Assembly: GCA_963677485.1 (NCBI GenBank)
Contig: OY781964.1
Span: 1,408,001 to 1,472,000, forward strand
From: Armatimonadota bacterium
Lineage (GTDB): Bacteria; Armatimonadota; HRBIN16
Length of the DNA stretch: 64,000 nucleotides
Reading direction: 5' to 3'
Below, in pieces: positions 49,752-64,000 of this stretch (its first letter is position 1; every line of letters starts with the position of its first letter). Position numbers and translations under genes: made by a program. Below the pieces are notes generated by a model. That model saw only the letters and a list, made by a program, of their open reading frames with translations, was not told the DNA's origin and made no database searches.

Positions 49752-50248
49752 ATACAGCCGAGATTGAACAACGAATCGCTGCCCTGTCCGCAGAGATGAG
49801 TGCTTTAGGAGAACAGCTTCAAAAAGAAGTCGTAACAGAAGACTTTAAACTGGTCGATGACAACCAGTGCGTGCGTGCTCGCATGTATATCGATGATACA
49901 GACGCATCAAGATTTGAGATGTATGATGAGACCGGACTTGTCGGAGCACAGATATTGGTAGGCCCTGAGGGTCACAGCCATATCGCGTTGGGTGACGAAA
50001 GGGGCTCGAGACTAGATGTCAATATGGAGCGCGGTAACCCAGGCTCCATTCGAATGTGGGTTCCTGGCTATGATGAATATCTGTCAAGGGAAATCATCAT
50101 CGGAACTTCCGATGACATGATGGTGGGCATCAAAATGTCTCAAGGTGGAGTGCAAAAGATATTTGTTGGTATCGATCAAGATGGTATTGCTAAGATATCC
50201 TTGCGTCAAGAAGATGGAACAGTCAAGGAATATGGCCCAAAGGAGTGA
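49748..50248 (+). CDS. Hypothetical protein (N-terminal coiled coil, beta-hairpin repeats, acidic)
   Basis: TTGA overlap with the previous ORF; F/L-x-L/M-x-D-x-x-G type repeats. Confidence 0.65.
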   Translation: MNTAEIEQRIAALSAEMSALGEQLQKEVVTEDFKLVDDNQCVRARMYIDDTDASRFEMYDETGLVGAQILVGPEGHSHIALGDERGSRLDVNMERGNPGSIRMWVPGYDEYLSREIIIGTSDDMMVGIKMSQGGVQKIFVGIDQDGIAKISLRQEDGTVKEYGPKE

Positions 50249-50784
50249 GCACTATAGAGCAATTGGATGAAAGGCTGCACGAGCTGGAACAACAGCTTGC
50301 ACGTCTAAAACAAACCCTCGCGTCTCAGATAAGCACTCGGCGGCTATGTGTTGGAAATCTACCTGTACCTGCTGATATGCCTGCACTCCTGAAGTGTCGC
50401 ATTGATCTGCGTGGGCCTGTAATCTCGGAACCGGTAGGCGGCATGAAGTTGATACCAGACTTTCTAGGTGCAAGTCTTAACATAAACCCAAAAACTATTA
50501 AGCATCAATTGATATTTCGGTATGATCCCGAACAACATGACCTTGTGATGTCGCTTTTCAATATGCTAACACGTGACAATGTCAGTTTATACCGACCATT
50601 GCTGCTGTGTTTGTATGAAAAAACCAAGGCGAAGCTGGCCATTGGTGTTAAGATGGAAGGAAACTGCGCCTTGTTAATACAAAGCGACAAGAAGCCAAAA
50701 TGCAGTATCCAGTTTATACTCACCGATGTACCTCAAGTTGTTGTGCTCTCAGGGCGAAAGCAGCACCGACTATTCAATAACTAA
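50245..50784 (+). CDS. Hypothetical protein (N-terminal coiled coil, beta-rich, basic)
   Basis: GTGA overlap with the previous ORF. Confidence 0.55.
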   Translation: MSTIEQLDERLHELEQQLARLKQTLASQISTRRLCVGNLPVPADMPALLKCRIDLRGPVISEPVGGMKLIPDFLGASLNINPKTIKHQLIFRYDPEQHDLVMSLFNMLTRDNVSLYRPLLLCLYEKTKAKLAIGVKMEGNCALLIQSDKKPKCSIQFILTDVPQVVVLSGRKQHRLFNN

Positions 50785-50852
50785 ATAGACCACCGCAGGA
50801 GCAAACACTCGCAACACAGACGGACCTTGTATATAAGTGCACAGTATTCCGG

Positions 50853-50935
50853 TCGTGGATGACCCTTGTGGTCATCCGAAAACCCAATGCACATGTCGCA
50901 ACCGGTGCGCGGATGACCACAAGGGTCATCCACGA
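50853..50935. repeat. REP doublet (26-bp perfect inverted repeat)
   Basis: tcgtggatgacccttgtggtcatccg ... cggatgaccacaagggtcatccacga. Shares the cccttgtgg core with 33118-33203. Confidence 0.8.
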
Positions 50936-51341
50936 AAACAGTACTTATTATACGGGCTGACTTGAACTCAAGAGCGGTGCTGTCTACTATCACTACACAC
51001 TAGGTTTGGCAGAAGGAGTATAAAAACCCGAATAGTTCGGATACTATTAAGTCGGAAGGTACTATATAAGCAAAGTCCTGAATACAGAGGTTTTTATGAT
51101 GTCAGACGAATCAGAAACCATCGAACACAAACTGTCACTAGCTGAACGTAAAGAGATCGTCGAATCTGTGGCTTCCCCTTTAGGCGCTGCACGGCCTTGA
51201 CAACCTTTGCGACAACTGGTATATATCATTCAGAGTAGAGAAGACAGGAAGTTGCTCTCTTCCATTACAACCAAATGCTAACCAATAGACCTAGGAAAAC
51301 AGAAATTATACCATTTTCCAGACTTTACTGAGGTAAACAGT

Positions 51342-51764
51342 ATGGATCGATCTGAACATCACAATACGCGTGAACCAAACGCTACCGAGACACAACATAA
51401 TGAAGTACATTGTGTGAGATGCGAGGATAGCAGCAATAGTGATAAAATCGAAGTAAAGCGTGAATGCAAACCAGTGCGTTGTGTGATATCGATGGTTCTT
51501 CATTTTCTTAAAGCACCGATACAGTACGTATTTATAATACTTGGCGTAGCGTATGGTGCGAAATTAACAAAAATTAGTGATAATTTATTATCAATAATGG
51601 TTGTTCGATCATCAGGATCGGTTGATAAAGCGCTAGAAAATATGAATGGGCAACAAACCATGTGGGTTAGTATAGTGTTGTTAGTAACGATTAGTCTTAA
51701 CATATGGATCACACGTTCAAATCTATGTAAGGATTATACTATGATTGGTGCCGCAAGTCGCTAG
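51342..51764 (+). CDS. Hypothetical membrane protein in the AT-rich insert
   Basis: Two hydrophobic segments and atypical AT-rich composition. Confidence 0.4.
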   Translation: MDRSEHHNTREPNATETQHNEVHCVRCEDSSNSDKIEVKRECKPVRCVISMVLHFLKAPIQYVFIILGVAYGAKLTKISDNLLSIMVVRSSGSVDKALENMNGQQTMWVSIVLLVTISLNIWITRSNLCKDYTMIGAASR

Positions 51765-52317
51765 TGTCATATTAATGGAAAGGATGCCTCTCATGATAAT
51801 CACCTCCATATTTGGTATAGCTATCGTATGTGTTGTAATTCAAACTATATATATAACTTTACGGTTCTTTCATATAAAGCTCATGAATTACTGGGTATTT
51901 GATGCTATCAAATACCGGAATCTCATGGAATATCCTTATCACGCATGCTTAAATGCAGTATTTGCAGATATCGGATTGTATGGTTCATCTACAACGTCTG
52001 CAATGAAGTATAGTGACCTAATATACCAGTCAATTCAAAATCACTTTGATTCATCTGCCATAGCCCAACTGCTAGATAATATGAATCCAGTCATGATAAG
52101 GATGTGTATGGCATGGATGATCGGGGCGCATCCTCTGAGGCTAATCACATATATCACGTTTGCGATAATCGATACATATAGGCAACTAACCATACAGCTA
52201 TGTCAGGAACTAAGGTTCGGATTAGTGAAAGCAACGTACCATTTATTTAGGAAACTATGCGCTATCAAAGTCATGAATGAGGCAAATGACTTCAGGGAGA
52301 TATCATTTTGCGTTTGA
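51745..52317 (+). CDS. Hypothetical membrane protein in the AT-rich insert
   Basis: Overlaps the previous ORF and may be its frameshifted continuation. Confidence 0.35.
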   Translation: MVPQVASVILMERMPLMIITSIFGIAIVCVVIQTIYITLRFFHIKLMNYWVFDAIKYRNLMEYPYHACLNAVFADIGLYGSSTTSAMKYSDLIYQSIQNHFDSSAIAQLLDNMNPVMIRMCMAWMIGAHPLRLITYITFAIIDTYRQLTIQLCQELRFGLVKATYHLFRKLCAIKVMNEANDFREISFCV

Positions 52318-52818
52318 TTCGGTTGTCATTACGAATGAATTGCAAGGTTAGGCCACATTTATGATGATCGTCTGGAGGTGTGGAACCCTGGTATGCTTCC
52401 GACCGGTATGTCTGTAGAGGAATTGTACCGTGAACACCCTTCTCGCCCTCGCAACCCGCGGTTGGCTTCCGCCATGCACAGAGCACGGTTGATTGAGCAC
52501 TGGGGTACAGGAACTCTGCGCATAATCAATGCCTGTGAGTCACGCGGAATGCCTAAGCCGGAGTTCGTCTCCTCCATGGGGTCATTCATCGTGCGATTCA
52601 ACAGAGCATTAAACGAGCCCACATCTGAAACAAATAACGAGCCCAGCGGATGGCAGCAAATCGCACTGAACTATATTCGCGAGAATGGATCTATCACGAC
52701 GTCTGTATTTCAGAAGTTGTTAGGTGTGAGCAATCGGCAAGCATATAACTACCTTATATTGCTGGTGAATAACAAAATCATCGAGAGGGTAGGCTCTGGC
52801 CGTTCAACACATTACGTG

Positions 52819-53037
52819 ACTAGTGCATGATTAATGCGGGATTAATGCGGGATTAATGCGGGATTAGTGCGGGATTAATGCGGGATTAGTGCGGGATTAG
52901 TGCGGGATTGGCGCGAATATGGCGGGATAATGGCGCGAATGGCGGGAAATGGCGGGAAATGGCGGGATATTGCGGGATTAGTGCACAAATAATGCACAAT
53001 TAGTGCGCGATTATTGCGCAATTATTGCGCGATTAGC
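52819..53037 (+). repeat. 11-bp tandem repeat array ATTA(A/G)TGCGGG, degenerating towards the 3' end
   Basis: Seven near-perfect units at 52830-52906, then about a dozen 9-11 bp variants. Confidence 0.9.
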
Positions 53038-53118
53038 CTCTCCTTCAGCTCTCTATCGTCCGCAGGTTGAGGTGGTAAACACTGTGATCCGTCACTCGGA
53101 AAGAGGTACCTCCAGCCG

Positions 53119-54615
53119 ATGATACTGATACCCCTGCTGTTCTATCTATCTGCCATGATCGGTGTACTCGTGTGGAACATTACGGCTTGTATCATCGTTC
53201 GACGCAGCAAAGATAGATACCCGCGCTGGGGCCGGTGGTGCTGCTATATCGCCACGGTGCTCATGCTGCCCGGACTGGTCTGCGATGTGGATGGTATGAC
53301 CCCGAATCCGCCTTCGACCACATTCGGTGCCTGGCTCTACCCCCTGTCGTTCGTCATGGCTGCCGGGGCCGCCGTCGCTTTTCGTTCTACATCCGGGCCA
53401 CGCCGCTGGTTCATACCGATACTGGCGTTCAACCTCTTGATGGCGTGGGTTTATTCAGCCCGTTTGCTGTTATACCACGGGGTTCCGCTCGGTCTGGCAT
53501 TGGAAGGTCAACAGGTCGCATACGCCATGGTGCAATCGGTCATGACGATATTCCTTTATGTGTTCTTCCCAATATTGAACTGGTGGCCTGTTCTGCCCTG
53601 GCCTGTGCCATCATCTCAATCGCGCTGGCGGGTCTTGCGCGTATTACCGTCTATTGCGGCCGCACTCATCGTGTCGGCAAACATCGTAATGACGCCGTTT
53701 GGCATACGGATTGCCAATAGCTGGCGCAACCCCCTGCCAGTGGCCAGTGCGACGATACCCTCCACTTTTCGGCCCGGTCTCGTGCTGCGTGTGTCGGCTG
53801 AGCCGGGAGCGTGGGAGAAGAGAGCACCTGTGCAGCTTGCGGCGATACGCGAGCTTCGCCCCCGCGCGGTCAACCTGTTTGTCCACGACGACTTGATGCG
53901 GAATCAGGTCAAAGCGAAGGCATTGGAGCGTTTCATTAACGAGATCAAAGCCACTGGAGCGTCTATCATATTGACGGCCGACTACCCTTCAGATTGGCCG
54001 CTCCGCCCGCCAAAAACACGCGAGCAGATACTACGGGTGATGCTGCCTTACCAGCGGTTCCTGGCACGCCGCTATGAACCGGAATACCTGGTGCCTTTCA
54101 TCGAACCGTATGGAGCGTTTGTCGCGGTGACGGGACGTACGCTGCCCGCCAGCGAATGGATGGCACTGCTGCGGGCATCGGCCACCGCGGTGCATTCAGA
54201 GAGCCCCAAGGTCCGATGTGCGGTCTACCTCGGTCAGGCCGAGACCGACCGGCTGCTTTACACGCAGGTCTGTATGAAGGGATCGCCTGTCGATGTCGTG
54301 GGTTTCAGCTTCTACGCTGTGTATCAAACGCGAGAGGAGATGGCCCCCAGACTCCGCTCCGTCGCACGCTGGATTCGCGATTACGGTCGGGGTCGAGAGC
54401 ATTGGGTGTTCGAGTATGGCCAGTCGCCAGTGACCATGGGTGGAGAGCGGTCACAGCGGAACTACCTGGAGTATGTGATGCGCTGGGCGGCTGATCAGCC
54501 CAACATGCGCGGGGCGTGCGTGTTTTCTTTAGATGACGAGGCCGAAAAGCTTGGGCTCATGACGGCCCAGGGCCGTCAACGTGAGGCGTACCGTTGGTTC
54601 CGTGGCCTGAGATGA
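53119..54615 (+). CDS. Membrane protein with about six N-terminal TM helices and a C-terminal GH-like TIM barrel
   Basis: Hydrophobic N-terminal 200 aa; FIEP, DVVGFSFY, WVFEYG resemble clan GH-A. Confidence 0.6.
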   Translation: MILIPLLFYLSAMIGVLVWNITACIIVRRSKDRYPRWGRWCCYIATVLMLPGLVCDVDGMTPNPPSTTFGAWLYPLSFVMAAGAAVAFRSTSGPRRWFIPILAFNLLMAWVYSARLLLYHGVPLGLALEGQQVAYAMVQSVMTIFLYVFFPILNWWPVLPWPVPSSQSRWRVLRVLPSIAAALIVSANIVMTPFGIRIANSWRNPLPVASATIPSTFRPGLVLRVSAEPGAWEKRAPVQLAAIRELRPRAVNLFVHDDLMRNQVKAKALERFINEIKATGASIILTADYPSDWPLRPPKTREQILRVMLPYQRFLARRYEPEYLVPFIEPYGAFVAVTGRTLPASEWMALLRASATAVHSESPKVRCAVYLGQAETDRLLYTQVCMKGSPVDVVGFSFYAVYQTREEMAPRLRSVARWIRDYGRGREHWVFEYGQSPVTMGGERSQRNYLEYVMRWAADQPNMRGACVFSLDDEAEKLGLMTAQGRQREAYRWFRGLR

Positions 54616-54643
54616 GCCGAAGGCCGGCCCAGTTTTTTCGCCT

Positions 54644-56860
54644 TTACCCCCTGCGCCGTTCGTGCTTCTCATCCTGCGGGTTCACGCGGTGTATCTCTAG
54701 CACGTCACTGAGCTTGTGCAGGTGGTCCATCACCCTGCGCAGGTGCTCCACACTCCGCACATTCAGCGTGACCTTTAGATTGGCCACAGAGTCGTCATCT
54801 AAAAATGCGTCGAGGGTATAAATACCGGCGCTGCAGTCGGTCAGTGCTTGCGACACACTGCTGATCAGTCCCGTCCGTTCCGCGGCGGTGATGCGCACAG
54901 GGGTGTGATACGTCACGTCCGGCTGTTCTTCCCACTCAAAACGACATACATTGTCCGGATCGGACATACGCTGTGTAAAGAATTTCGCACAGTCCGCCCT
55001 ATGTACTGTAATGCCACGACTTTTTGGCGGCCGCCAGCCATATACAGCATCACCTGGCAAAGGCAGGCAGCACGTGGCTCGCCGTAACAGGTTGTGCAAT
55101 ATGCAGAGTTTTGGCCCTTCGCGGTGTTCCCGCAGCAACCGCGTGATGGCTCTATCGGCACTGAACTGCCCATCCCCCAGCCCAGACAGGAAGGCATCGG
55201 CACCACCCAGTCCCAGCCGTTTTGCCATCTGCAGGATCGCCTCAGGTGTCAACATCTGCTGCGGATCGGGACCAAATCGAGAAGCGGCGGCGAGGAGCAT
55301 CTGTCGACCCTTTTCGATATTGCTTGCCAAAGCTTGCTTGCGGATGCTGGTCTTGATCGCCCTGAGAGCTAAAGGTGTGTGAGCATGGTTTAACCAGTGG
55401 ACCGAAGGCATCACATCTGGTTTCGTAATGATCTCGACCACATCACCCTTTTTCAGGATCGTATTCATGAACACGGGAGTTCGGTTGATGATGGCACCAG
55501 AATAGTGCATACCCAGTTCCGAGTGAATACGGAAAGCAAAATCGAGCGGTGTGGAACCCGCCTGTAAATCCACGACATCGCCCTTCGGTGTAAACACAGT
55601 GATCGAGGTACCGCCCAGATCTTCACGCAGCAGGCGCAGATACTCGTCGGGTTCGACATCCTTCTCCTGTGTCCACAACAAAAGCTGCTGCTGCAGTTTG
55701 GCGAAACGCTGTTCCAGCTTACAGTTGTGTGCGGGAGACTCCCCGTCGCGCCAGTAGGAGGCCAGACCGTAGTCGGCACTACGGTGCATCTCCTGGCTGC
55801 GTATCAAAATCCGCATTTCCATGCCGTTATGCCCAACCACCGTGGTATGCAGGGCCTCATACAGGTTCGAACGGCTTCTGGCTATGAAATCCTCGAATTT
55901 ACCAGGCACAGGCAGCCATAATCCATGCACAATGCCAAGTGTCTCGTAGCAACTGCTCACAGAAGGCACCACCACGACAATCGAAAACAGATCGAATATC
56001 TGCTCGGCACTCAACTCACCGCGGTGGGTTTTCATCACTACTTCGTAGAGGTGACGCTTCTGAACCATCACACTGGCATTCACACTACGGCCATAGAAGG
56101 CATTTCGGAGATCGTTGATCGCACTGCTCAGGATATATCCCTGCTTGGCGAAGGTGGCATCCATCTGAATGCGCATATTCTTGGCGAGGTGGGGCTCAAG
56201 TTCACTAAATGCGATATCCTCAAGCTCAGTTCGGATGGGCCATACTCCCAGCTTTTCGGCAAGAGGGGCGTATATCTGCAGCGTTTCGGCAGCCAGGCGT
56301 CTCCGTTTGGCGGCACTGGGAAGAGCACCCAGACTGCGCATATTATGCAGCCTGTCAGCCAGCTTCACCGCCAACACTCGAATGTCCTTCGCCACACCAT
56401 ACAGGATTTTACGCAGCGTCTGGGCTTTAGCACGCGTATCGCTCAGTTCCCTCACGCGGTCAGGATTGGTGGCCTCCACATCGATGTCTTCTGGTGTCAC
56501 CATATCACGTGGGATTTTGGTCACAGCGTCTACAATTTCCGCCACTTCATGCCCGAAGTGAGCACGCACCATCTCCAGATCGACTTGAGGGCAATCCTCC
56601 ACCGTGTCGTGCAGCAGCGCAGCCTGCACCGTCGGTGGGTCCATTTCCAGGTGCGCCACGATCTCAGCCACACTCAGGGGATGCTCTATGTAAGGCGTGA
56701 CGTGATCCGCACGCATCTGCCCTGTATGTGCCTCATAAGCGAATAGAAATGTCCGCTCAATCAACCCCTCGGGACAATTCGGATAGGCGGTCATAATGGT
56801 GTCTTGAAGTTTGGCTACGCGTTTCGCAAAGCGATCGGGTATTGCCTGTAAATTGCTCAT
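54644..56860 (-). CDS. Long RelA/SpoT homologue with intact HD hydrolase and degenerate synthetase
   Basis: LLHDTVED and KLADRLHNMR are intact, synthetase motifs are eroded, and TGS/ZFD/ACT are present. Start MSNLQ overlaps the upstream stop (ATGA). Confidence 0.88.
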   Translation of the reverse strand: MSNLQAIPDRFAKRVAKLQDTIMTAYPNCPEGLIERTFLFAYEAHTGQMRADHVTPYIEHPLSVAEIVAHLEMDPPTVQAALLHDTVEDCPQVDLEMVRAHFGHEVAEIVDAVTKIPRDMVTPEDIDVEATNPDRVRELSDTRAKAQTLRKILYGVAKDIRVLAVKLADRLHNMRSLGALPSAAKRRRLAAETLQIYAPLAEKLGVWPIRTELEDIAFSELEPHLAKNMRIQMDATFAKQGYILSSAINDLRNAFYGRSVNASVMVQKRHLYEVVMKTHRGELSAEQIFDLFSIVVVVPSVSSCYETLGIVHGLWLPVPGKFEDFIARSRSNLYEALHTTVVGHNGMEMRILIRSQEMHRSADYGLASYWRDGESPAHNCKLEQRFAKLQQQLLLWTQEKDVEPDEYLRLLREDLGGTSITVFTPKGDVVDLQAGSTPLDFAFRIHSELGMHYSGAIINRTPVFMNTILKKGDVVEIITKPDVMPSVHWLNHAHTPLALRAIKTSIRKQALASNIEKGRQMLLAAASRFGPDPQQMLTPEAILQMAKRLGLGGADAFLSGLGDGQFSADRAITRLLREHREGPKLCILHNLLRRATCCLPLPGDAVYGWRPPKSRGITVHRADCAKFFTQRMSDPDNVCRFEWEEQPDVTYHTPVRITAAERTGLISSVSQALTDCSAGIYTLDAFLDDDSVANLKVTLNVRSVEHLRRVMDHLHKLSDVLEIHRVNPQDEKHERRRG

Positions 56861-59124
56861 AATGCCTCTTCCTGCGGGCCTTCGCGGCGCACCAAAAGCA
56901 CAGACGGCACACTCCGGCAACGGTCGATCAATGTTTGCAGATGGCTTAGCCCCGTGACCTCACAGCAGATGTCTGTGACCGAACTAGCCTGTTTCGTGAC
57001 TTTGGACTTAAAGCTGGTGATGTTGGTTTTGGTGTCGCTAAAGTTGGAGATGATCTCGGGCCAAATACCATGCCTGTCCATGAACTCGATGCGTACGGTG
57101 GCACTAAAAACTTCGCCTGCCCGCTCGTTCCACTCAATCAACACCAGCCGTTCCGGCTCAGTGCGCTGATAGTTCTTCGCGTTTGGGCAGCAAGAACGGT
57201 GCATCATCAGTCCACGACCGCGGCTGGTATACCCCAGCACCACATCGCCAGGGATCGGTGAGCAGCAGCGTCCCCGCTTGATCATGACATTATCGATGCC
57301 GCCCACAACCAGTTTGGTCTCTTTTTCAACCACCTTGCTGATGGGTGTAATCAGCTCGTTAGTCACAGGGGCGTCAGGCAACAGCCGCTGACCGATGGCC
57401 TGTGCGGAGGCGCGACCATCGGCTACTGCGGCGTAGACGTCGTCGATATCGTGGAAGCTCATGCGTCGCACGATCTCATCAAGCGCGTCCGGCCTCAGCA
57501 GTTCGTGCGGTTCGAGCCCTAGCCGCTCCGCCTCCTTTTCAAGAAGCTCGCGGCCACGCTGCACATTCGCATCATGGTCTAGTTTGCGGAAAAAGTTTCG
57601 TATCTTACTGCGGGCATGGTTAGTTTTGACAAAGTTCAGCCAGTCACGGCTGGGTTCCGCGTTGGAGCGGGTGACGATCTCCACCACATCCCCGTTCTTC
57701 AGTTGCGTGTTGACGGGGGTCATACGGCCATTGACCTTGGCACCCACGCAGAGATTACCCATGTTAGTATGCACGCGGTAAGCGAAGTCGATGGGTGTAG
57801 AGCCCGCAACCAGGTCTACCACCTCACCCTTGGGTGTGAACACAAAAACCAGGTCGCTGAACAGGTTTTTTACCACGCTGCCAAGGAATGTGGTGTCTTC
57901 GCGGCCTTCTACCTGCCAGTTAAATAACTGCTGCCGCAGGTTGGTCATACGCCGCTCGAAGGTGTCATCCCCAGATCCGCCCTCTTTATACTGCCAGTGG
58001 GCGGCCAGCCCAAAGTCGGCGTTGCGGTGCATCTGCCAGGTACGTATCTGCACCTCCAGCGGCTGCTGGTTAGGCCCGAATACTTTAGTGTGGATGCTCT
58101 GGTAGAGGTTACTTTTCGGTCTGGCGATGTAATCATCAAAGCGGTTTGGAATCGGCTGCCACAGATCATGCACAATGCCCAGCGTATGGTAGCAGTCGCC
58201 AACCGTCTCGGTGATCACCCGCAAGGCTAACAGGTCAAAAATCTGATCGAGGTCCAACTGCTCTTTGATCATCTTATTGTAGATGCTATATAGGTGCTTG
58301 GGCCGGCCCTGCACCTCGGCGTTGATGCCCTCGCGTTCCAGTCGGTTCTTCAAGATGCCGATGGCCCGCTGGATATCGCGTTCGCGAACCTGCCGAGTGG
58401 AAGAGACCCTGGTGGCCAGTTGATGATAGGCTTCGGGGTTCCGCAGTTTGAAAGAAAGGTCTTCCAGCTCCCATTTCAACTGCCACACACCCAGGCGATG
58501 GCTCAACGGCGCATAGATGGCCAGAGTCTCTTCTGCGATCCGCTGCTGAGTATGTTGATCATACATATCGGCACTTCGGAGCTGGTGAAGGCGGTCGGCA
58601 AGTTTCAATACAATCACACGCAGGTCGCGCGACATCGCCAGAAGTATCTTACGGAGGTTCACCGCCGCAGCCTGTTGTATTTTCATCCGGCGGCGGCGGT
58701 CATGGTCGGTTTCGTCCTCAGCTACCTCATCCACATCGCGCAGCTCGAACACGCTGAGCGTGCTGATGCTATGCACAATGCCGGCTACTTCGTCACCGAA
58801 GCGGGCTTTTAAAGTATCAAGGGTGACCAACTGGCGGGGATAATACGTATTATGCAGGATGGCAGCGCAGATAGCCGCCGCATCCATTTCGAGGCCGATG
58901 AGTATTTGCGCGACTTGCACGGGGTGTTCGAAGAGTTCGAGGTGGGTGGTTTCGTCGATGTTGTTCAACATCACGGACTTGGCGAATTCGGCAGCCGCGA
59001 GGATAGCCGCACGCTCTTCTTCTGTATGAGTTTCAGGCAGTTCAGCTAGCAGCTTTTGAACCTGAAGATCATACCGCTTTGATACTGCGTCAAGGCTTAT
59101 GTCGATGTGCTCTGTTGTACCCAT
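56857..59124 (-). CDS. relA: Long RelA/SpoT homologue with intact synthetase and degenerate hydrolase
   Basis: GRPKHLYSI, DLLALRV, DYIARPKSNLYQSIHT and EVQIRT are intact, while the HD motif reads HNTYY. Start is 59124 (ATG) or 59199. Confidence 0.9.
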   Translation of the reverse strand: MGTTEHIDISLDAVSKRYDLQVQKLLAELPETHTEEERAAILAAAEFAKSVMLNNIDETTHLELFEHPVQVAQILIGLEMDAAAICAAILHNTYYPRQLVTLDTLKARFGDEVAGIVHSISTLSVFELRDVDEVAEDETDHDRRRRMKIQQAAAVNLRKILLAMSRDLRVIVLKLADRLHQLRSADMYDQHTQQRIAEETLAIYAPLSHRLGVWQLKWELEDLSFKLRNPEAYHQLATRVSSTRQVRERDIQRAIGILKNRLEREGINAEVQGRPKHLYSIYNKMIKEQLDLDQIFDLLALRVITETVGDCYHTLGIVHDLWQPIPNRFDDYIARPKSNLYQSIHTKVFGPNQQPLEVQIRTWQMHRNADFGLAAHWQYKEGGSGDDTFERRMTNLRQQLFNWQVEGREDTTFLGSVVKNLFSDLVFVFTPKGEVVDLVAGSTPIDFAYRVHTNMGNLCVGAKVNGRMTPVNTQLKNGDVVEIVTRSNAEPSRDWLNFVKTNHARSKIRNFFRKLDHDANVQRGRELLEKEAERLGLEPHELLRPDALDEIVRRMSFHDIDDVYAAVADGRASAQAIGQRLLPDAPVTNELITPISKVVEKETKLVVGGIDNVMIKRGRCCSPIPGDVVLGYTSRGRGLMMHRSCCPNAKNYQRTEPERLVLIEWNERAGEVFSATVRIEFMDRHGIWPEIISNFSDTKTNITSFKSKVTKQASSVTDICCEVTGLSHLQTLIDRCRSVPSVLLVRREGPQEEAL

Positions 59125-59367
59125 GCTGGGGTCAATACCACCGTTGTCTACTGTTTTTATATTATACTCAACAATCGCACCTGGATGACTTGAGCACACT
59201 ACGCCACATATTTACACCTATAAGCGCACTGTATAACATGTTAGCGCACCGTGCGTGTGTCTCATATTTAGACTCCGGCGCGGTGACATTCAAATGAGAA
59301 TGAAGCGCGCTGAGCCATTTGTTGTCATTCAACTCGACTTAATGTTAGTGATTGCGGGAGGCACACT

Positions 59368-60195
59368 ATGAAGCTCGTTAAGGCGCAGAAATTTACTCCA
59401 TTCCCCTCTTCTATTATAAGATCAGGGTTGTGGGCGCAGCTGTCAGCATCGGCGAAAGCCGTCTATGTCTGTCTGCTTGATCGGTCCGATGGAAACACCT
59501 GCAAGTGTTGGCCAAGCTATGCTACGATCGCGAAAGATGCGGGTATCTGCAGGGCATCGGCAATCGTGGCTGTGAAGGAACTTATGACCAAGGAACTGGT
59601 GATAATAGAAGCCAGGCATGACGACGAAGGCGACCAGGCAAGCAACATCTACACTATGATGGTGCCGGACGATGAGCAGGAATACCCTAGTGTAAATAAT
59701 GCACTAGGTAGTCCAGAAAATAGACCACCCCAGTCTAAAAATCAGACTACCGGTAGTCCAAATTCTAGACCCGAACGAGACCCAATTGAACCAGACCCAT
59801 TGAACGGAGATTCCCCTACGGGATCGGCTGCCGCCGATGCGCCTCACAAAGCGATCAAACCCGATGTTTATCAAGCCGTTCTCGAGGTCTACAACCTCGC
59901 GTGGATGCCGGAACCTCCGAAGAGTGAGGTTGGGCGGGTGCTGAAATACATGAAAGAGGCCCTTAGCAGCGGGTGGGACACGCAGCGCATCGCCACCGCC
60001 TGGATGAATGCCCGCAAACACGCCACAAACCCACACTTCTGGACGCTGTCGTATTGCCTGGTGCACCTGACCGAGGCGGAGGCGATGACCTCGCGGCCTG
60101 GTGGCAAGCCGCCAAAGTTGACCGATGAAGAGCTTGAGGCACGGGCAAGGGCGAACGCACAAAGCGTGCAGGGGGTGCTCCACAATGACCGATGA
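59368..60195 (+). CDS. Phage replication initiator (N-terminal wHTH)
   Basis: LSASAKAVY...CWPSYATIAKDAG...SNIY, plus internal iteron-like repeats. Confidence 0.75.
   Translation: MKLVKAQKFTPFPSSIIRSGLWAQLSASAKAVYVCLLDRSDGNTCKCWPSYATIAKDAGICRASAIVAVKELMTKELVIIEARHDDEGDQASNIYTMMVPDDEQEYPSVNNALGSPENRPPQSKNQTTGSPNSRPERDPIEPDPLNGDSPTGSAAADAPHKAIKPDVYQAVLEVYNLAWMPEPPKSEVGRVLKYMKEALSSGWDTQRIATAWMNARKHATNPHFWTLSYCLVHLTEAEAMTSRPGGKPPKLTDEELEARARANAQSVQGVLHNDR
59689..59771. promoter_or_regulatory. Iteron-like repeats, putative phage origin
   Basis: Four 17-bp imperfect palindromes (agtgtaaataatgcact, agtccagaaaatagacc, agtctaaaaatcagact, agtccaaattctagacc) spaced 21-23 bp. Confidence 0.6.
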
Positions 60196-60814
60196 GAGAT
60201 TCGCCGACGCGATGGCGTTCTTCGCCATCACCTACGGCGCGGAATACAGCGCGAAGCAGCAGACCATGTGGCGGGTGCAGATCGAACGCCACAACATCAG
60301 CGACGCGGAGTTCGACGCGGCATTGGATAAGTTTTTGATGACCAAGGAGTCGAACTTCATGCCGCGCACACCCGGCGCGGTGCTGTGCTACGTGGTGGAT
60401 GCCCGCCAGCAGGCGAAGATCGAGGGCTTGCCGACTGTCACTGAGGCCGCTATCGAAGTGCGGCGCAAGCTTGACGCCTACGGCCCGATGCCGGAGTATT
60501 CGCATCCACTGATACGCCTGGCTGTCGAGAGCATCGGATATTCAAGCCTGGTAAGGTATGACAGTGTGAAGCTGCAAGAGATATTCGGATATCGATATGG
60601 AGAGCTGCGGAAAAACTACCTCGAAGGCGGCGGTGAGGCTATTATGCAACGGATCGAGGCAGGAAAGAAGCCAAAGCAGCTAACAGGCGGCAATGTATCC
60701 TCTGGGAATTACCGCGAAGTGGCCCAGGAGCCGCCTGCACCACGCGGCGCGCCATCGAATGCGCTGCAAGCGATGCTGGCAAGGATCGGGAACCTCAGGG
60801 TGGCTACAAAGTGA
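60185..60814 (+). CDS. Phage replication accessory protein (helicase loader/inhibitor-like)
   Basis: Position after the initiator; MTDERF...F.P motif, HPLIRLAVESIG. Confidence 0.55.
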   Translation: MTDERFADAMAFFAITYGAEYSAKQQTMWRVQIERHNISDAEFDAALDKFLMTKESNFMPRTPGAVLCYVVDARQQAKIEGLPTVTEAAIEVRRKLDAYGPMPEYSHPLIRLAVESIGYSSLVRYDSVKLQEIFGYRYGELRKNYLEGGGEAIMQRIEAGKKPKQLTGGNVSSGNYREVAQEPPAPRGAPSNALQAMLARIGNLRVATK

Positions 60815-61218
60815 TCACAAAATGCGTAATCATGCCGATTCACACAAAGTGGCTGGACCTGATAATTAACGGCGAGAAAATCATCGAACTGCGGCGCCAG
60901 GACCTGAGGGAAGGCATCCACACCGTGCTCTTCTATGAATGCAAAACTGGGCAAATCACCGCGGCTGCGGAGGTGCTCAGCTTATCGATGAAGTCGATCC
61001 ACACTCTGGAAAGTCAATACTCACGCCACACATGTGTCACATCGTCGGAATTGAGCAAATACGCAGCTGGTAACCAATGGCTATTATGCATCGTGCTGAT
61101 GGACGCTATTCGCCTTACAACACCCATCACGCTTGCTGAAGTTGGTTTGACCCGCGCACCACAGTCATACGTTTACAGAGATATCGACTGTAGCCGGCTG
61201 CAAGGAGTAAGCGAATGA
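60811..61218 (+). CDS. ASCH/PUA-domain protein
   Basis: IHTKWLDLIINGEKIIELRR, RAPQSYVY. Confidence 0.8.
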   Translation: MITKCVIMPIHTKWLDLIINGEKIIELRRQDLREGIHTVLFYECKTGQITAAAEVLSLSMKSIHTLESQYSRHTCVTSSELSKYAAGNQWLLCIVLMDAIRLTTPITLAEVGLTRAPQSYVYRDIDCSRLQGVSE

Positions 61219-61502
61219 GGAAGCCATCGGAGTTCATAGGCCATCACCTGATGGCCGCAAATGGCCGCATGTGGAGCTGCAGGGCGTGCGGCGGGTCGTA
61301 TGTGGTGGTAGGCCACACGCTGGACACAAAGGGCAAGGTGGCCTATCTGCGCGGGCTATGCAGCAACTGCCTAGCTGAGAGCTACCGCAACTACAGCGAG
61401 GGCCAGCGGCCAATAGAGGCCAAGTGGCCGGTGAAGCTAGCGATGATCAGAAACGACCGATGGCCCGCATGGGCCTCTAAAGGAGTATTCGACTGTGAGT
61501 GA
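61215..61502 (+). CDS. Hypothetical zinc-ribbon protein
   Basis: CxxC...CxxC and ATGA coupling. Confidence 0.55.
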   Translation: MRKPSEFIGHHLMAANGRMWSCRACGGSYVVVGHTLDTKGKVAYLRGLCSNCLAESYRNYSEGQRPIEAKWPVKLAMIRNDRWPAWASKGVFDCE

Positions 61503-61977
61503 AAATCAAGCGCAGCACCTTACAAAGGTGCAAGGACGTGCATATCTGCCAGTGGATGCCCGCATCGTGGCATTCAGGGAGGATCACCCAGAGTGGGCAA
61601 TCGAGACCGAGGTGACCTTTACGGATGACATGAACGCGTGCATCGTGAAGTGCTCGGTGAAGGACGAAACCGGGCGTGTGCTGGCAAACGGCCACAAGAA
61701 GGAGAGCTCGGCAGCATTCGCGGACTTCGTGGAGAAGGCTGAGACGGGCGCGATCGGGCGGGCGCTGAAGTTGATGGGATATGGAACCCTTAACGCACTG
61801 AATGAGGCGGGCGCGCCATGTGGTGATAAAATACAGACAGATACACCTGCAAATATACCCACTGCTGAGGCGTGCGTATCCTGCGGGTGTGTGTTGACCG
61901 CTGGGCAGGCTGCGCTGGCCATGAAGCGGTATGAGCGGCTGATCTGTGGCGCGTGCCAGAAGGGAGCGGGGAAGTGA
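61495..61977 (+). CDS. Possible Rad52/Sak-like single-strand annealing protein with C-terminal zinc finger
   Basis: YLPVDARIVAFREDHP, EKAETGAIGRAL..MGYG, CxxC...CxxC. Confidence 0.55.
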   Translation: MSENQAQHLTKVQGRAYLPVDARIVAFREDHPEWAIETEVTFTDDMNACIVKCSVKDETGRVLANGHKKESSAAFADFVEKAETGAIGRALKLMGYGTLNALNEAGAPCGDKIQTDTPANIPTAEACVSCGCVLTAGQAALAMKRYERLICGACQKGAGK

Positions 61978-62195
61978 AAAGCGAAACAAAGATGATACCT
62001 GTGACGGTCGCGTTACAAGGCGAATGCTGCCATCAAACGTGCCCGCAGCTTAGAATGCGAGATGCTGGCCGTGGTGATGCATGGCGCTGTAAGTGGTTGG
62101 ACTGCAAACTTGAGAAGTGCTTCATGCCCAATCAGCCTGCCTTTCGAGCATTCCAATGCATTGAGGTATTTGGGGATGGAGAAGAAGCCAGTTGA
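61974..62195 (+). CDS. Small Cys-rich hypothetical protein
   Basis: Overlaps both neighbours by 4 bp. Confidence 0.45.
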   Translation: MKSETKMIPVTVALQGECCHQTCPQLRMRDAGRGDAWRCKWLDCKLEKCFMPNQPAFRAFQCIEVFGDGEEAS

Positions 62196-62512
62196 GTGAC
62201 TACGAGAACCAACTTGCCTTGCAACTGAAGCTCACCGGTCACGCTGATGTGGTGACTGAGCTGAGGTTTGCAGATGGCAGGCGGTTCCGGTTTGATGTGG
62301 CGTTGCCAGCGCATCAGTTGGCAGTGGAGATCGACGGCGGCTGCTTCAATGGTGGCCGCCATGTGTCGGCGGCGGGCATACGGTCCGAGCATGAGAAGAG
62401 TTACCTTGCGGCGTTGTATGGTTGGAGAGTGATCCACGTGTTGCCAGAAGATGTGCGCTCTGGGGTGGCGTTGGCGCGCATTGAGAAGGTGATCCGTGGA
62501 TGTGGAGGCTGA
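62192..62512 (+). CDS. PD-(D/E)XK (DUF559/Vsr-like) endonuclease
   Basis: RRFRFDVA, LAVEIDGG, GRH, GWRVI. Confidence 0.75.
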   Translation: MSDYENQLALQLKLTGHADVVTELRFADGRRFRFDVALPAHQLAVEIDGGCFNGGRHVSAAGIRSEHEKSYLAALYGWRVIHVLPEDVRSGVALARIEKVIRGCGG

Positions 62513-62869
62513 ATGACTGAGCATCCGTGGCGTGATCTGGTTCATTTCACCGACATCGATCAGTTCGCGATACGATTGGAGCAGTTGGAGTATTGGCCTG
62601 TGTGCAGCGTGTGTGGCGGGTTAGTCAAAGAGGAACTGGCGCAGGCTGTGCGTAAGGGCGTGCTCACGAACCGTGAGTGTATGGTGCTAATTGCCATCAT
62701 GCACGGCGTGCGTGCGAAGCAGATTGCGCCCATGATGGGCATCACCGAGCGCGGCGTGAACATCGCATACAAGCGCGCTTGTAAGGCCATCAACGAGTGG
62801 CGTGATTGCGGCGTAACCACCGCATTGCTTGAGGCGTTTGGGCGTGGAGCGTTGGAGATCATCGAATGA
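62513..62869 (+). CDS. Sigma region 4/LuxR-type HTH protein, putative late-gene activator
   Basis: LTNRE...GVRAKQIAPMMGITERGV. Located just before the packaging genes. Confidence 0.65.
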   Translation: MTEHPWRDLVHFTDIDQFAIRLEQLEYWPVCSVCGGLVKEELAQAVRKGVLTNRECMVLIAIMHGVRAKQIAPMMGITERGVNIAYKRACKAINEWRDCGVTTALLEAFGRGALEIIE

Positions 62870-63189
62870 GCAAGGCACCACTCAAGCCGTGCGCTAAGGT
62901 CGGCTGCCGTGAGCTGGTGCGCGGCGTCCGCTACTGCAAGGCGCACACCAGGGACGAGTCGGCGCGCGTGCAGTCGCAGGATCGCGGCTACAACGAACGC
63001 TGGAAGCTGATCAGGCGGCTCTATGTGCAGAAACATCCGCTGTGTGAGGTCTGTATGGCGCCGGTGGAGATTGTCCACCACAAAACCCCCATCGCGGAAG
63101 GCGGCGAGCGCTACAACTACGACAACCTCCAAAGTCTGTGCCGAGTCTGCCACGGCAAGGCGCACGGGGGAGGGGGGTCGATATGTTGA
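62866..63189 (+). CDS. Terminase-associated HNH endonuclease
   Basis: HPLCEVC, VHH, NLQSLCRVCH. Confidence 0.9.
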   Translation: MSKAPLKPCAKVGCRELVRGVRYCKAHTRDESARVQSQDRGYNERWKLIRRLYVQKHPLCEVCMAPVEIVHHKTPIAEGGERYNYDNLQSLCRVCHGKAHGGGGSIC

Positions 63190-63437
63190 GATGCTTTCAA
63201 ACCCCCACCGCGCATTGGGTCGTTTGTGCGAGAGATCAAATTCCAGTTTTTTGGTGCTTTGTATGTAAACGGTAATATAATAACGGTTGCGTGCGTAATG
63301 ATGGCAAAAGTTGCTATGTAATGACGGTACGGAGATATTCAATAATTGGTCGGTGGTTAATCGGGAGTAGGTCGAGAGTTAATCTGGAGTTGGTCTGTGG
63401 TCGGTCTGTAATAAGTCGATGATGGGTGGGTGATGAC

Positions 63438-63920
63438 ATGAGTGCGAACAAAGGCAGGAAGCCGGCAGCAGGTAATGATGTGTTGGGCGGAAACACTACA
63501 TCATCTGATGCAGGCGGTTACGTTTCGGATGGGCACAAGGGATCATCTACCGCAGGTGGCGATTCCATCAGCCAGAGATTATCTCCACCGAGTCACCTCG
63601 GACAGTATGGCAGAGCAGAGTGGCGAAGGATACTTCCAAAGCTCATAGGCATCGCAACTAACCTTGACTATGCTGCATTGGTTGCTTATTGCAGTGCATA
63701 TAACACCATGATCCAAGCGGATATCCTACTTAACCAGCAAGGGTTGATCATCGAGACTGAGAAGGGAATGATAGCACATCCTGCCACCAGAATTAAAGCA
63801 TCAGCTTCGGACCAGGTGCGCAGGTATCAAACAGAGTTTGGGCTTACTCCGCTGGCCAGGTTGAGGGTGCAGCCGTCGCTGCCAGAGGGCGATGAAGATG
63901 ATCTGGCGAAAATGTGCTAA
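63438..63920 (+). CDS. Phage terminase small subunit, P27 family
   Basis: GRKP, PPSHL...AEWRRI, YC.AY, HPA, EFGLTP.AR. Confidence 0.9.
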   Translation: MSANKGRKPAAGNDVLGGNTTSSDAGGYVSDGHKGSSTAGGDSISQRLSPPSHLGQYGRAEWRRILPKLIGIATNLDYAALVAYCSAYNTMIQADILLNQQGLIIETEKGMIAHPATRIKASASDQVRRYQTEFGLTPLARLRVQPSLPEGDEDDLAKMC

Positions 63921-64000
63921 GGCCATATTTAGAACTTAAGGAAACCAAACAGTGGCGGTTCGATGAAGAAAAAGCGGACCGCGCATGCAGGTGGATGGAA
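63914..64000 (+). CDS. Phage terminase large subunit, N-terminus (truncated by the window edge)
   Basis: GTG start; ...WRFDEEKADRACRWME resembles Terminase_1 N-termini. Confidence 0.65.
   Translation, partial: MLRPYLELKETKQWRFDEEKADRACRWME

Follow-up and report, generated by a model that had tools for sequence, protein, structure and literature searches.

The split between RelA and SpoT is a textbook example of subfunctionalisation in bacterial signalling and, to our knowledge, its complete form, a synthetase-only RelA[hS] accompanied by a hydrolase-only SpoT[Hs], has been described for Moraxellaceae only. Two long RelA/SpoT homologue (RSH) genes, here named P0001 and P0002, were encountered in a 64,000-nucleotide stretch of an Armatimonadota genome (assembly GCA_963677485.1, contig OY781964.1, positions 1,408,001 to 1,472,000; this whole stretch is called the window). 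They overlap by four nucleotides, and each has apparently lost the activity that the other retains. The analysis supports an independent, tandem recurrence of this split, restricted to two sister genera within a single family.

An updated survey of 24,072 genomes recognised 13 long-RSH subfamilies (PMC7229694). RelA[hS] and SpoT[Hs] of Moraxellaceae likewise display complete reciprocal subfunctionalisation, full long-RSH architecture and a retained, conserved pseudo-synthetase (PMC9974481, PMC3153485). Their origin is nevertheless independent, since the window copies nest among the Rels of their own family. The substitutions differ as well: in the hydrolase-only SpoT of Acinetobacter baumannii (7QPR) substitutions affect the catalytic Asp, the Gln and a number of nucleotide-binding residues (PMC9974481), whereas P0002 displays Glu to Arg and Gln to Leu changes and keeps the Asp. 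In Escherichia coli, relA and spoT are ~0.9 Mb apart, while the window genes are adjacent and overlap in ATGA. The lineage-specific Rel duplicates RshA to RshD are also second long RSHs derived from Rel and more divergent than the resident Rel (PMC3153485). In Bacteroidetes one copy, a monofunctional synthetase, is devoid of key hydrolase residues and its partner is described as bifunctional (PMC6994654), unlike the window pair; the corresponding locus tags are far apart (BT0700/BT3998, PGN_0465/PGN_1757), in contrast to the adjacent window genes.

The operons called toxSAS (Jimmy et al. 2020) also combine, in overlapping bicistronic form, an alarmone synthetase and an HD-domain hydrolase (PMC7229694). 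These are single-domain accessory proteins found beside a housekeeping long RSH, whereas both window proteins are full-length long RSHs and the sole RSH proteins of their genome, which places them outside toxSAS. The best sequence and fold matches were bifunctional Rel[HS] proteins (Bacillus subtilis 6YXA, Staphylococcus aureus 7OIW, Streptococcus equisimilis 1VJ7 and Thermus thermophilus 6S2T), with the same domain order and, ancestrally, dtd downstream; in contrast to these, each window protein lacks one catalytic set.

Neither adjacent or overlapping long-RSH genes nor RSH proteins of Armatimonadota were found described in the accessible parts of the literature searched. A preliminary description of the locus, made from the sequence alone, had taken a single bifunctional Rel and the unlinked RelA and SpoT of beta- and gammaproteobacteria as the established background; this was incomplete, the RshA to RshD duplicates and the Moraxellaceae split having been published already (PMC3153485, PMC9974481). 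Lineage-specific Rel duplicates as such are known. The same end state would have been reached independently in a different phylum, by different inactivating substitutions and at the ancestral rel locus.

Gene anatomy and catalytic residues

Gene P0001 (56857..59124, minus strand), the predicted synthetase-only copy, encodes 755 amino acids (aa) from an ATG at 59124; its longest possible frame opens at GTG 59199, and the orthologue in the related genome G002 likewise has 755 aa. Gene P0002 (54644..56860, minus strand; 738 aa), the predicted hydrolase-only copy, follows head to tail, its ATG (56860-56858) lying over the P0001 stop codon TGA (56859-56857) to form ATGA (56857..56860, minus strand). 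Open reading frames, Pfam matches and zinc-finger motifs confirmed the two overlapping full-length genes of the preliminary description. A Shine-Dalgarno-like run, GGAAGAGG (56865..56872, minus strand), inside the end of the P0001 gene and four nucleotides before the P0002 ATG, is a putative ribosome-binding site.

Relatives are designated here by genus: g1 is the genus of the window genome, g3 its sister genus and g2 a third genus of the family. The run was present at the same junction position in all three g1 genomes, reading GGAAGAGG in G001 and GGAGGACG in G002, and ATGA joined the first and second RSH genes in five of five genomes of g1 and g3. The overlap suggests translational coupling of P0001 and P0002, which is supported by this conservation across two genera. 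DNA contigs of related strains from two other studies bridged the junction.

Both proteins displayed the Pfam domains HD_4, RelA_SpoT, TGS and ACT_4 (RelA_AH_RIS in P0001 alone) as well as the zinc-finger motifs CCxPxPGD...HRxxC, and were 33 % identical over 750 columns. Each has the architecture of a long RSH (HD-SYNTH-TGS-helical/zinc-finger-ACT/RRM, ~700-800 aa) and gave full-length matches in PDB. With the NCBIfam model TIGR00691 (spoT_relA subfamily; cut-off 499.2) P0001 scored 653.9 bits and P0002 496.0 bits, three bits short of it, a deficit due to the degeneration of its synthetase domain. Orthology was supported neither between P0001 and RelA (NF008124, 537.8 bits versus a cut-off of 728) nor between P0002 and SpoT (NF008303, 388.7 bits versus 947). 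The residue set of a bifunctional Rel[HS], with both groups of motifs intact, was complete in neither protein. Judged by its residues, P0001 would belong to the RelA type [hS], with degenerate HD, intact synthetase (SYNTH) and TGS His, and P0002 to the SpoT[Hs] type, with an intact HD site and a retained degenerate SYNTH. Annotation pipelines label such proteins 'bifunctional (p)ppGpp synthetase/hydrolase' or 'GTP pyrophosphokinase' whatever the residues.

The long-RSH fold of P0002 was confirmed by an AlphaFold2 model (pLDDT 85, pTM 0.78), whose N-terminal half matched 7OIW with TM-scores of 0.89-0.90. Global TM-scores of 0.36-0.40 against 7QPR (SpoT tau-state) and 0.41/0.49 against ribosome-bound RelA do not inform on conformation.

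Residues were compared in a motif table of 54 long RSHs. It contained the two window proteins, eight g1 paralogues (from G001, G002 and clusters P0003 and P0004), six g3 paralogues, the single Rel of 13 g2 genomes, 19 Rels of other families of the phylum and, as outside rows, RelA and SpoT of E. coli, one Pelistega SpoT and three named Bacillota Rels. The 35 single-copy Rels of the phylum in this table and the three Bacillota Rels all kept ExQIRT, GRxKH (ARPKH in L006), the His-Asp of the HD motif and DRxHN; one of them, the g2 Rel L020, reads HDVLEH. Work on RelSeq attributes catalytic roles to the Glu-Asp pair in HDxxED and to the Glu in ExQIRT.

The HD domain of P0001 (58483..58995, minus strand; aa 44-214) is a predicted pseudo-hydrolase: H91-N92-T-Y-Y95-P96 stands in place of HDxxED and D177-R-L-H-Q181 in place of DRLHN, Gln replacing Asn, while the Arg of the RxxGEPY block is lost. 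All three g1 upstream copies displayed HNTYYP, DRLHQ and the same loss of Arg, together with intact synthetase motifs. The synthetase domain of P0001 (RelA_SpoT; 57976..58308, minus strand; aa 273-383; PF04607 E 3.2e-41, 140.6 bits) harbors GRPKH (273-277), DLLALR (297-302) and EVQIRT (357-362); it keeps G273, R274, K276, H277, K284, D297, R302, Y341, H345, E357 and Q359, which correspond to invariant columns of a 40-sequence alignment (A1). Its TGS domain (57670..57849, minus strand; aa 426-485) keeps His452, aligned with H420 of B. subtilis Rel and H432 of E. coli RelA, which stack on the CCA end of the tRNA (PMC7797070). By these residues P0001 is apparently synthetase-only.

P0002 displayed the opposite state. 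Its HD domain (56240..56743, minus strand; aa 40-207; PF13328 E 1.5e-43) is intact, with HDTVED at 84-89 and DRLHN at 169-173, and R50, H60, H84, D85, E88, D89, D169 and N173 fall on invariant columns of a 42-sequence alignment (A2). Its predicted pseudo-synthetase domain (55748..56056, minus strand; aa 269-371, the block reaching N-terminally to 266; PF04607 74 bits) reads VQKRH (266-270) for GRPKH, DLFSIV (290-295) for DLxAxR and RILIRS (350-355) for ExQIRT; the catalytic Glu is replaced by Arg350, the Gln by Leu352 and two Arg by Gln267 and Val295. Five of five downstream copies, P0002, P0003 and P0004 included, displayed HDTVED, DRLHN, xQKRH, DLFSIV and R[IV]LIRS, and the Glu to Arg and Gln to Leu changes of ExQIRT were fixed in all seven downstream-type sequences of the two genera. 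P0002 is apparently hydrolase-only. Its TGS domain (55424..55603, minus strand; aa 420-479) keeps His446 and reads GAIINRTP as opposed to GAKVNG[RK]xVP in Rel and RelA. At this position NRTP was seen in the g1 hydrolase-type copies, DRTP in those of g3 and DRQP in E. coli SpoT, possibly a convergent change in hydrolase-biased long RSHs.

All motifs quoted for both copies in the preliminary description were found at their places in the motif table, and the reciprocal catalytic loss that it had proposed was borne out by the residues against 52 other long RSHs. The alignment that it had called for was made pairwise, with solved Rel, RelA and SpoT chains, and placed the substitutions on the known catalytic blocks. 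We infer, on good grounds, that each protein has lost one activity. A further claim, that an acidic insertion before LRKIL, SNLY and HRxADxGLA are shared by both copies, held as to their presence; the insertion, however, is inherited rather than specific to the paralogues, being of equal length in the single g2 Rel and present there in many Rels of the phylum. HRxAD also occurs in the g2 Rel (HRTADFGIA), from which the Leu of SNLY and that of GLA are absent. A RelA-like shift of a charge motif (RFDD versus EXDD) was rejected, as RFDD is already found in the g2 Rel.

Divergence was unequal along the proteins. P0001 was 40 % identical to the g2 Rel in HD, 73 % in SYNTH and 78 % in TGS, and P0002 46 %, 35 % and 57 %, respectively, its C-terminal half being more diverged too; the HD domain of an ordinary Rel of the phylum was 58 % identical to that of the g2 Rel, as opposed to the 40 % of P0001. 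E. coli RelA and SpoT showed the same domain-wise asymmetry in the same table. The ratio of nonsynonymous to synonymous substitution rates (dN/dS) between the window genome (G000) and G001 was 0.030 for the upstream gene (pseudo-hydrolase 0.062, synthetase 0.017) and 0.065 for the downstream gene (hydrolase 0.048, pseudo-synthetase 0.041). The last value indicates that the pseudo-synthetase of P0002 is conserved rather than decaying. The g3 copies A, B and C, numbered from upstream to downstream, gave 0.058, 0.12 and 0.15, dS being high there. All RSH copies of g1 and g3 are under purifying selection and none is decaying.

Distribution and origin of the copies

The window genome (a single contig of 5.22 Mb, 97 % complete) displayed two PF04607 and two PF13328 matches, none of them outside this locus. 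As it is without any other HD_4-type hydrolase, activity of P0001 should always call for P0002. Among the 18 genomes of the family, those of g1 harbored two adjacent copies (3/3), those of g3 three adjacent copies (2/2) and those of g2 a single long RSH of intact bifunctional type (13/13), the copy of G012 being split by contig ends. The second copy, whose persistence in relatives the preliminary description had left to be checked, was consequently present in every g1 and g3 genome. A short HD-only frame (187-314 aa) resembling small alarmone hydrolases was observed in seven of the 13 g2 genomes (G005, G010, G012, G013, G014, G015 and G017); the window genome has none.

In g3, copy A is of [hS] type, with an HD site even more eroded than in P0001 (LILSTY, ERLHA). 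Copy C is of [Hs] type and displays the Glu to Arg change of P0002; its TGS His is lost, and no TGS or ACT domain was detected in it. The middle copy B lacks both sites (LLYEVS and AQKLI; LRARS and MLVLIRT) and has a stem of 5.5 substitutions per site, with dN/dS ~0.12. Close relatives thereby offer a natural series of one, two and three copies: Rel, [hS]+[Hs] and [hS]+[hs]+[Hs]. Such a series could address which substitutions make a long RSH monofunctional, whether expression at a fixed ratio can replace the intramolecular switch between synthesis and hydrolysis, and what purpose retained dead domains serve.

Outside these genera the arrangement was not encountered. Of 401 sampled genomes of the phylum, 390 displayed a synthetase-domain match and 31 at least two. 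No adjacent pair occurred in the 26 multi-match genomes outside g1 and g3, where no two matches lay within 300 kb on one contig and the second matches were mostly short frames of 213-470 aa or contig-end fragments. No second RSH frame was seen in 80 metagenomic Rel loci (median 8.3 kb) either; these were ordinary Rels, 31-35 % identical, found with generic HD motif patterns, and serve as a sample of adjacency only. In a collection of 5.8 billion clustered proteins, the orthologues of P0002 amounted to no more than three clusters, at 80, 79 and 61 % identity, after which came an ordinary Rel at 38 %. A scan of genome contigs with P0002 returned only the sister genome and a Pelistega SpoT (31 % identical). 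As a separate observation, G022, from another family of the phylum, encodes an 823-aa protein (L032:2260-4731) with an N-terminal RelA_SpoT domain followed by TPR, SLOG (LSDAT_prok) and RyR domains; it is unlinked to the Rel of G022 and has the appearance of a signalling or defence-type fusion.

In a quick tree of 46 rows, the g1 upstream copies and g3 copy A grouped together (support 100), with the g2 Rel as their sister (100). A separate clade (100), apart from all rows of the phylum, united the SpoT proteins of E. coli and Pelistega; RelA of E. coli, on a long branch, was placed within the Rel radiation, away from P0001. In the approximately unbiased (AU) test, uniting all 18 rows of the family gave a tree that exceeded the quick free tree by 17.8 log-likelihood units (p-AU 0.851). 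A more careful tree of 27 rows recovered all family copies as one clade (87/90), within which the g1 upstream copies joined g3 copy A (97/100) and the g1 downstream copies joined g3 copy C (99/96). Since both two-genus clades were recovered, the duplication and both losses predate the split between g1 and g3. In this tree the downstream clade had a stem of length 0.67, and the stems of copies C and B measured 2.61 and 5.53, respectively. P0001 grouped with the Rel of its own family (100/100). The RpoB tree read ((g1,g3) 100/97, g2), with the family at 100/100, so that the multi-copy genomes form one species clade.

The gene order was secDF-recJ-rel-dtd in g2 and RSH-A, RSH-B, RSH-C, dtd in g3, where additional copies separate rel from dtd, its ancestral neighbour (triples at L029:1696-8290 in G004 and L030:1514-8113 in G006, each followed by dtd). 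In g1 this neighbour is replaced by a convergent gene. In the g2 genome G011, rel and dtd overlap in TAATG (L049:8421-8430), which indicates that coupling of rel to a downstream gene predates the duplication. The phylogeny and synteny proposed as a check in the preliminary description placed the copies in the Rel clade of their own family, apart from the E. coli SpoT clade, and its suggestion that an independent tandem duplication gave rise to a synthetase-type and a hydrolase-type copy is supported by the trees, the motif table and the synteny of g3.

The simplest history would then have comprised one in-place duplication of rel in the ancestor of g1 and g3, the loss of hydrolase residues by the first copy (the NTY signature common to both genera), the loss of synthetase residues by the last copy (the common Gln-x-Arg-His and Arg-x-x-Ile-Arg signatures) and either one further duplication in g3 or one loss in g1. 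A late duplication or gene conversion was also considered from residues common to P0001 and P0002 and absent from the g2 Rel. It found no support, as there was no excess: 35 of 123 doubly changed columns (0.28) were shared, compared with 0.16-0.28 in nine unrelated or cross-paralogue control pairs, while true orthologue pairs gave 0.32 and 0.24.

Proposed function and alternative explanations

The locus is probably best explained by an in-place duplication of rel followed by opposite losses, which left a ribosome-activated synthetase, P0001, and a hydrolase, P0002, in a two-gene operon. On the observed gene anatomy, residue states, copy number, phylogeny, synteny and purifying selection, we infer the enzymatic activities, the co-transcription, the coupling and the separate action of the two proteins. 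The ancestral bifunctional rel of a secDF-recJ-rel-dtd cluster would have been duplicated in place in the ancestor of the two sister genera. P0001 would be a starvation-sensing alarmone synthetase like RelA[hS], switched on by ribosomes with deacylated tRNA, its degenerate HD having a regulatory role, as has been described for RelA. P0002, with a complete Mn-type HD site, would be the only long-RSH (p)ppGpp hydrolase of the cell, like SpoT[Hs] of Moraxellaceae, and its conserved dead pseudo-synthetase may have a role in regulation or as a scaffold, as has been described for SpoT of A. baumannii. The fixed ratio of synthetase to hydrolase in a bifunctional Rel is lost once RelA and SpoT are separate genes (Atkinson et al., PMC3153485); the ATGA overlap, by tying the translation of P0002 to that of P0001, would partly restore it.

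Several points weigh against this explanation. With regard to the residues, P0001 keeps three of the four positions aligned with the Mn ligands of Rel (H67, H91 and D177, the Asp being changed to Asn92) and may retain some hydrolysis, while P0002 retains D290, aligned with the Asp of the D264G mutation that abolishes synthesis in B. subtilis Rel (PMC7797070); its loss of synthesis accordingly has to rest on Arg350, Leu352, Gln267 and Val295. With regard to origin, the quick tree placed the long-branched downstream clade outside the family clade, within the Rel radiation of the phylum, and the careful tree joined both two-genus clades with the g2 Rel and g3 copy B in a polytomy. Joining the g1 and g3 copies without g2 cost 2.5 log-likelihood units and was not rejected (p-AU 0.156), so that a duplication after the g2 split is the parsimonious rather than the demonstrated order of events. 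With regard to the operon, one metatranscriptome library contained five short contigs of a related strain on both genes and none across the junction, and these may derive from DNA carry-over. A promoter scan gave three promoter-like sites, compared with 3.6 expected from shuffles, none usefully placed, and a terminator scan nine sites, compared with 4.4 expected; on the minus strand, no site coincided with the end of the operon.

A bolder view of the locus, which we regard as unlikely, is that of a split Rel working as one unit: the halves would be supplied in a constant proportion by translational coupling, a starved ribosome would turn the synthetase on and the hydrolase off in trans, possibly by way of contact between the proteins, and g3 copy B would be purely regulatory. 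Such trans switching is suggested by the TGS His and the ribosome-binding C-terminal domains kept in both halves. Copy B would then be a regulatory pseudo-enzyme, e.g. a decoy or sensor binding ribosomes or tRNA; no catalytically empty long RSH inside a stringent-response operon was found described in the accessible parts of the literature searched.

Somewhat more doubtful is physical association of the pair as a split-Rel heteromer, in which P0001 and P0002 would bind each other or share a ribosome and exert reciprocal control in trans, the ATGA setting a 1:1 supply. The conservation of ATGA in all five genomes together with the Shine-Dalgarno-like run, the TGS His (for the tRNA CCA end) and zinc-finger cysteines kept by both g1 copies, and the strong purifying selection on both pseudo-domains would all fit such an assembly, and C-terminal self-association of RelA and Rel has been reported. 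This self-association is, however, disputed in the same literature (PMC7669825), and the SpoT of A. baumannii, functionally the nearest analogue, is monomeric and not under ribosomal control (PMC9974481). Moreover, a shared ribosome and tRNA mechanism is not conserved in g3, whose copy C is without TGS His and detectable TGS or ACT, and operon coupling requires no physical contact. A complex prediction for the C-terminal halves (P0001 395-755 with P0002 390-738) gave a score of 0.10 against a mark of 0.32 and carries no weight either way.

An incomplete split, with one or both proteins still bifunctional through weak residual activity of the degenerate domain, as in E. coli SpoT, and the pair consequently redundant rather than complementary, is improbable. 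It would agree with the conservation of the degenerate domains and with the residues that they keep (H67, H91 and D177 in P0001; D290, K277, Y334 and H338 in P0002), but P0001 has Tyr-Pro where HDxxED has its ED pair, P0002 has Arg and Leu for the Glu and Gln of ExQIRT, two changes fixed in 7/7 downstream-type sequences, and Moraxellaceae SpoT lost synthesis through comparable changes (PMC9974481).

Horizontal acquisition of the second copy and its insertion beside rel, instead of a tandem duplication, is very improbable. The position of the downstream clade in the quick tree would suit a transfer, as would the phage-like replication module found directly upstream of the operon in the window genome. 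Yet the constrained family tree beat the quick free tree, the careful tree recovered the family clade, the HD insertion has the length of that in the family's single Rel, and the nearest non-orthologous homologues are only 38 % identical; furthermore, transfer leaves unexplained why the extra g3 copies lie between rel and dtd, and the module is absent at this place from G001 and G002, which carry the same gene pair. It is equally hard to credit a safeguard or addiction-like pair, with a hyperactive or deregulated synthetase and the hydrolase as a toxSAS-type antitoxin, or a P0002 acting on another substrate such as (pp)pApp. The layout, a synthetase gene overlapping the hydrolase gene downstream of it, does recall the bicistronic toxSAS operons in which an HD-domain protein acts as the neutralising partner (PMC7229694), but the two genes are the sole RSH genes of the genome, derive from a housekeeping rel at its ancestral locus and encode full-length long RSHs rather than single-domain small alarmone synthetases or hydrolases, and the synthetase domain is the most conserved part instead of being diverged.

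Surroundings of the operon

The region 50000-64000 yielded no Rfam match, hence no known riboswitch or leader, and no tRNA gene. The phage-like module (59368-61977, plus strand) lies directly upstream of the RSH operon and divergent from it; it comprises an HTH_36/replication-initiation (O-like) protein, an ASCH-domain protein and members of two PHROG families of unknown function. As G001 and G002 carry a URO-D-like gene at this place, the module looks like an insertion specific to the window genome.

On the other side of the operon, a convergent gene (53119-54615, plus strand) encodes 498 aa; its N-terminal half is hydrophobic and multi-span, and there is a GH53-like match, weak at 22.9 bits and below the cut-off. 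Upstream of it (50001-52830) is found a fragment-like open reading frame of 150 aa, with RecG-C-like HATPase_c_4 and DIP2311-like wHTH domains, whose counterpart in G001 is 202 aa long. The stretch 50001-52000 is low in GC (0.42).

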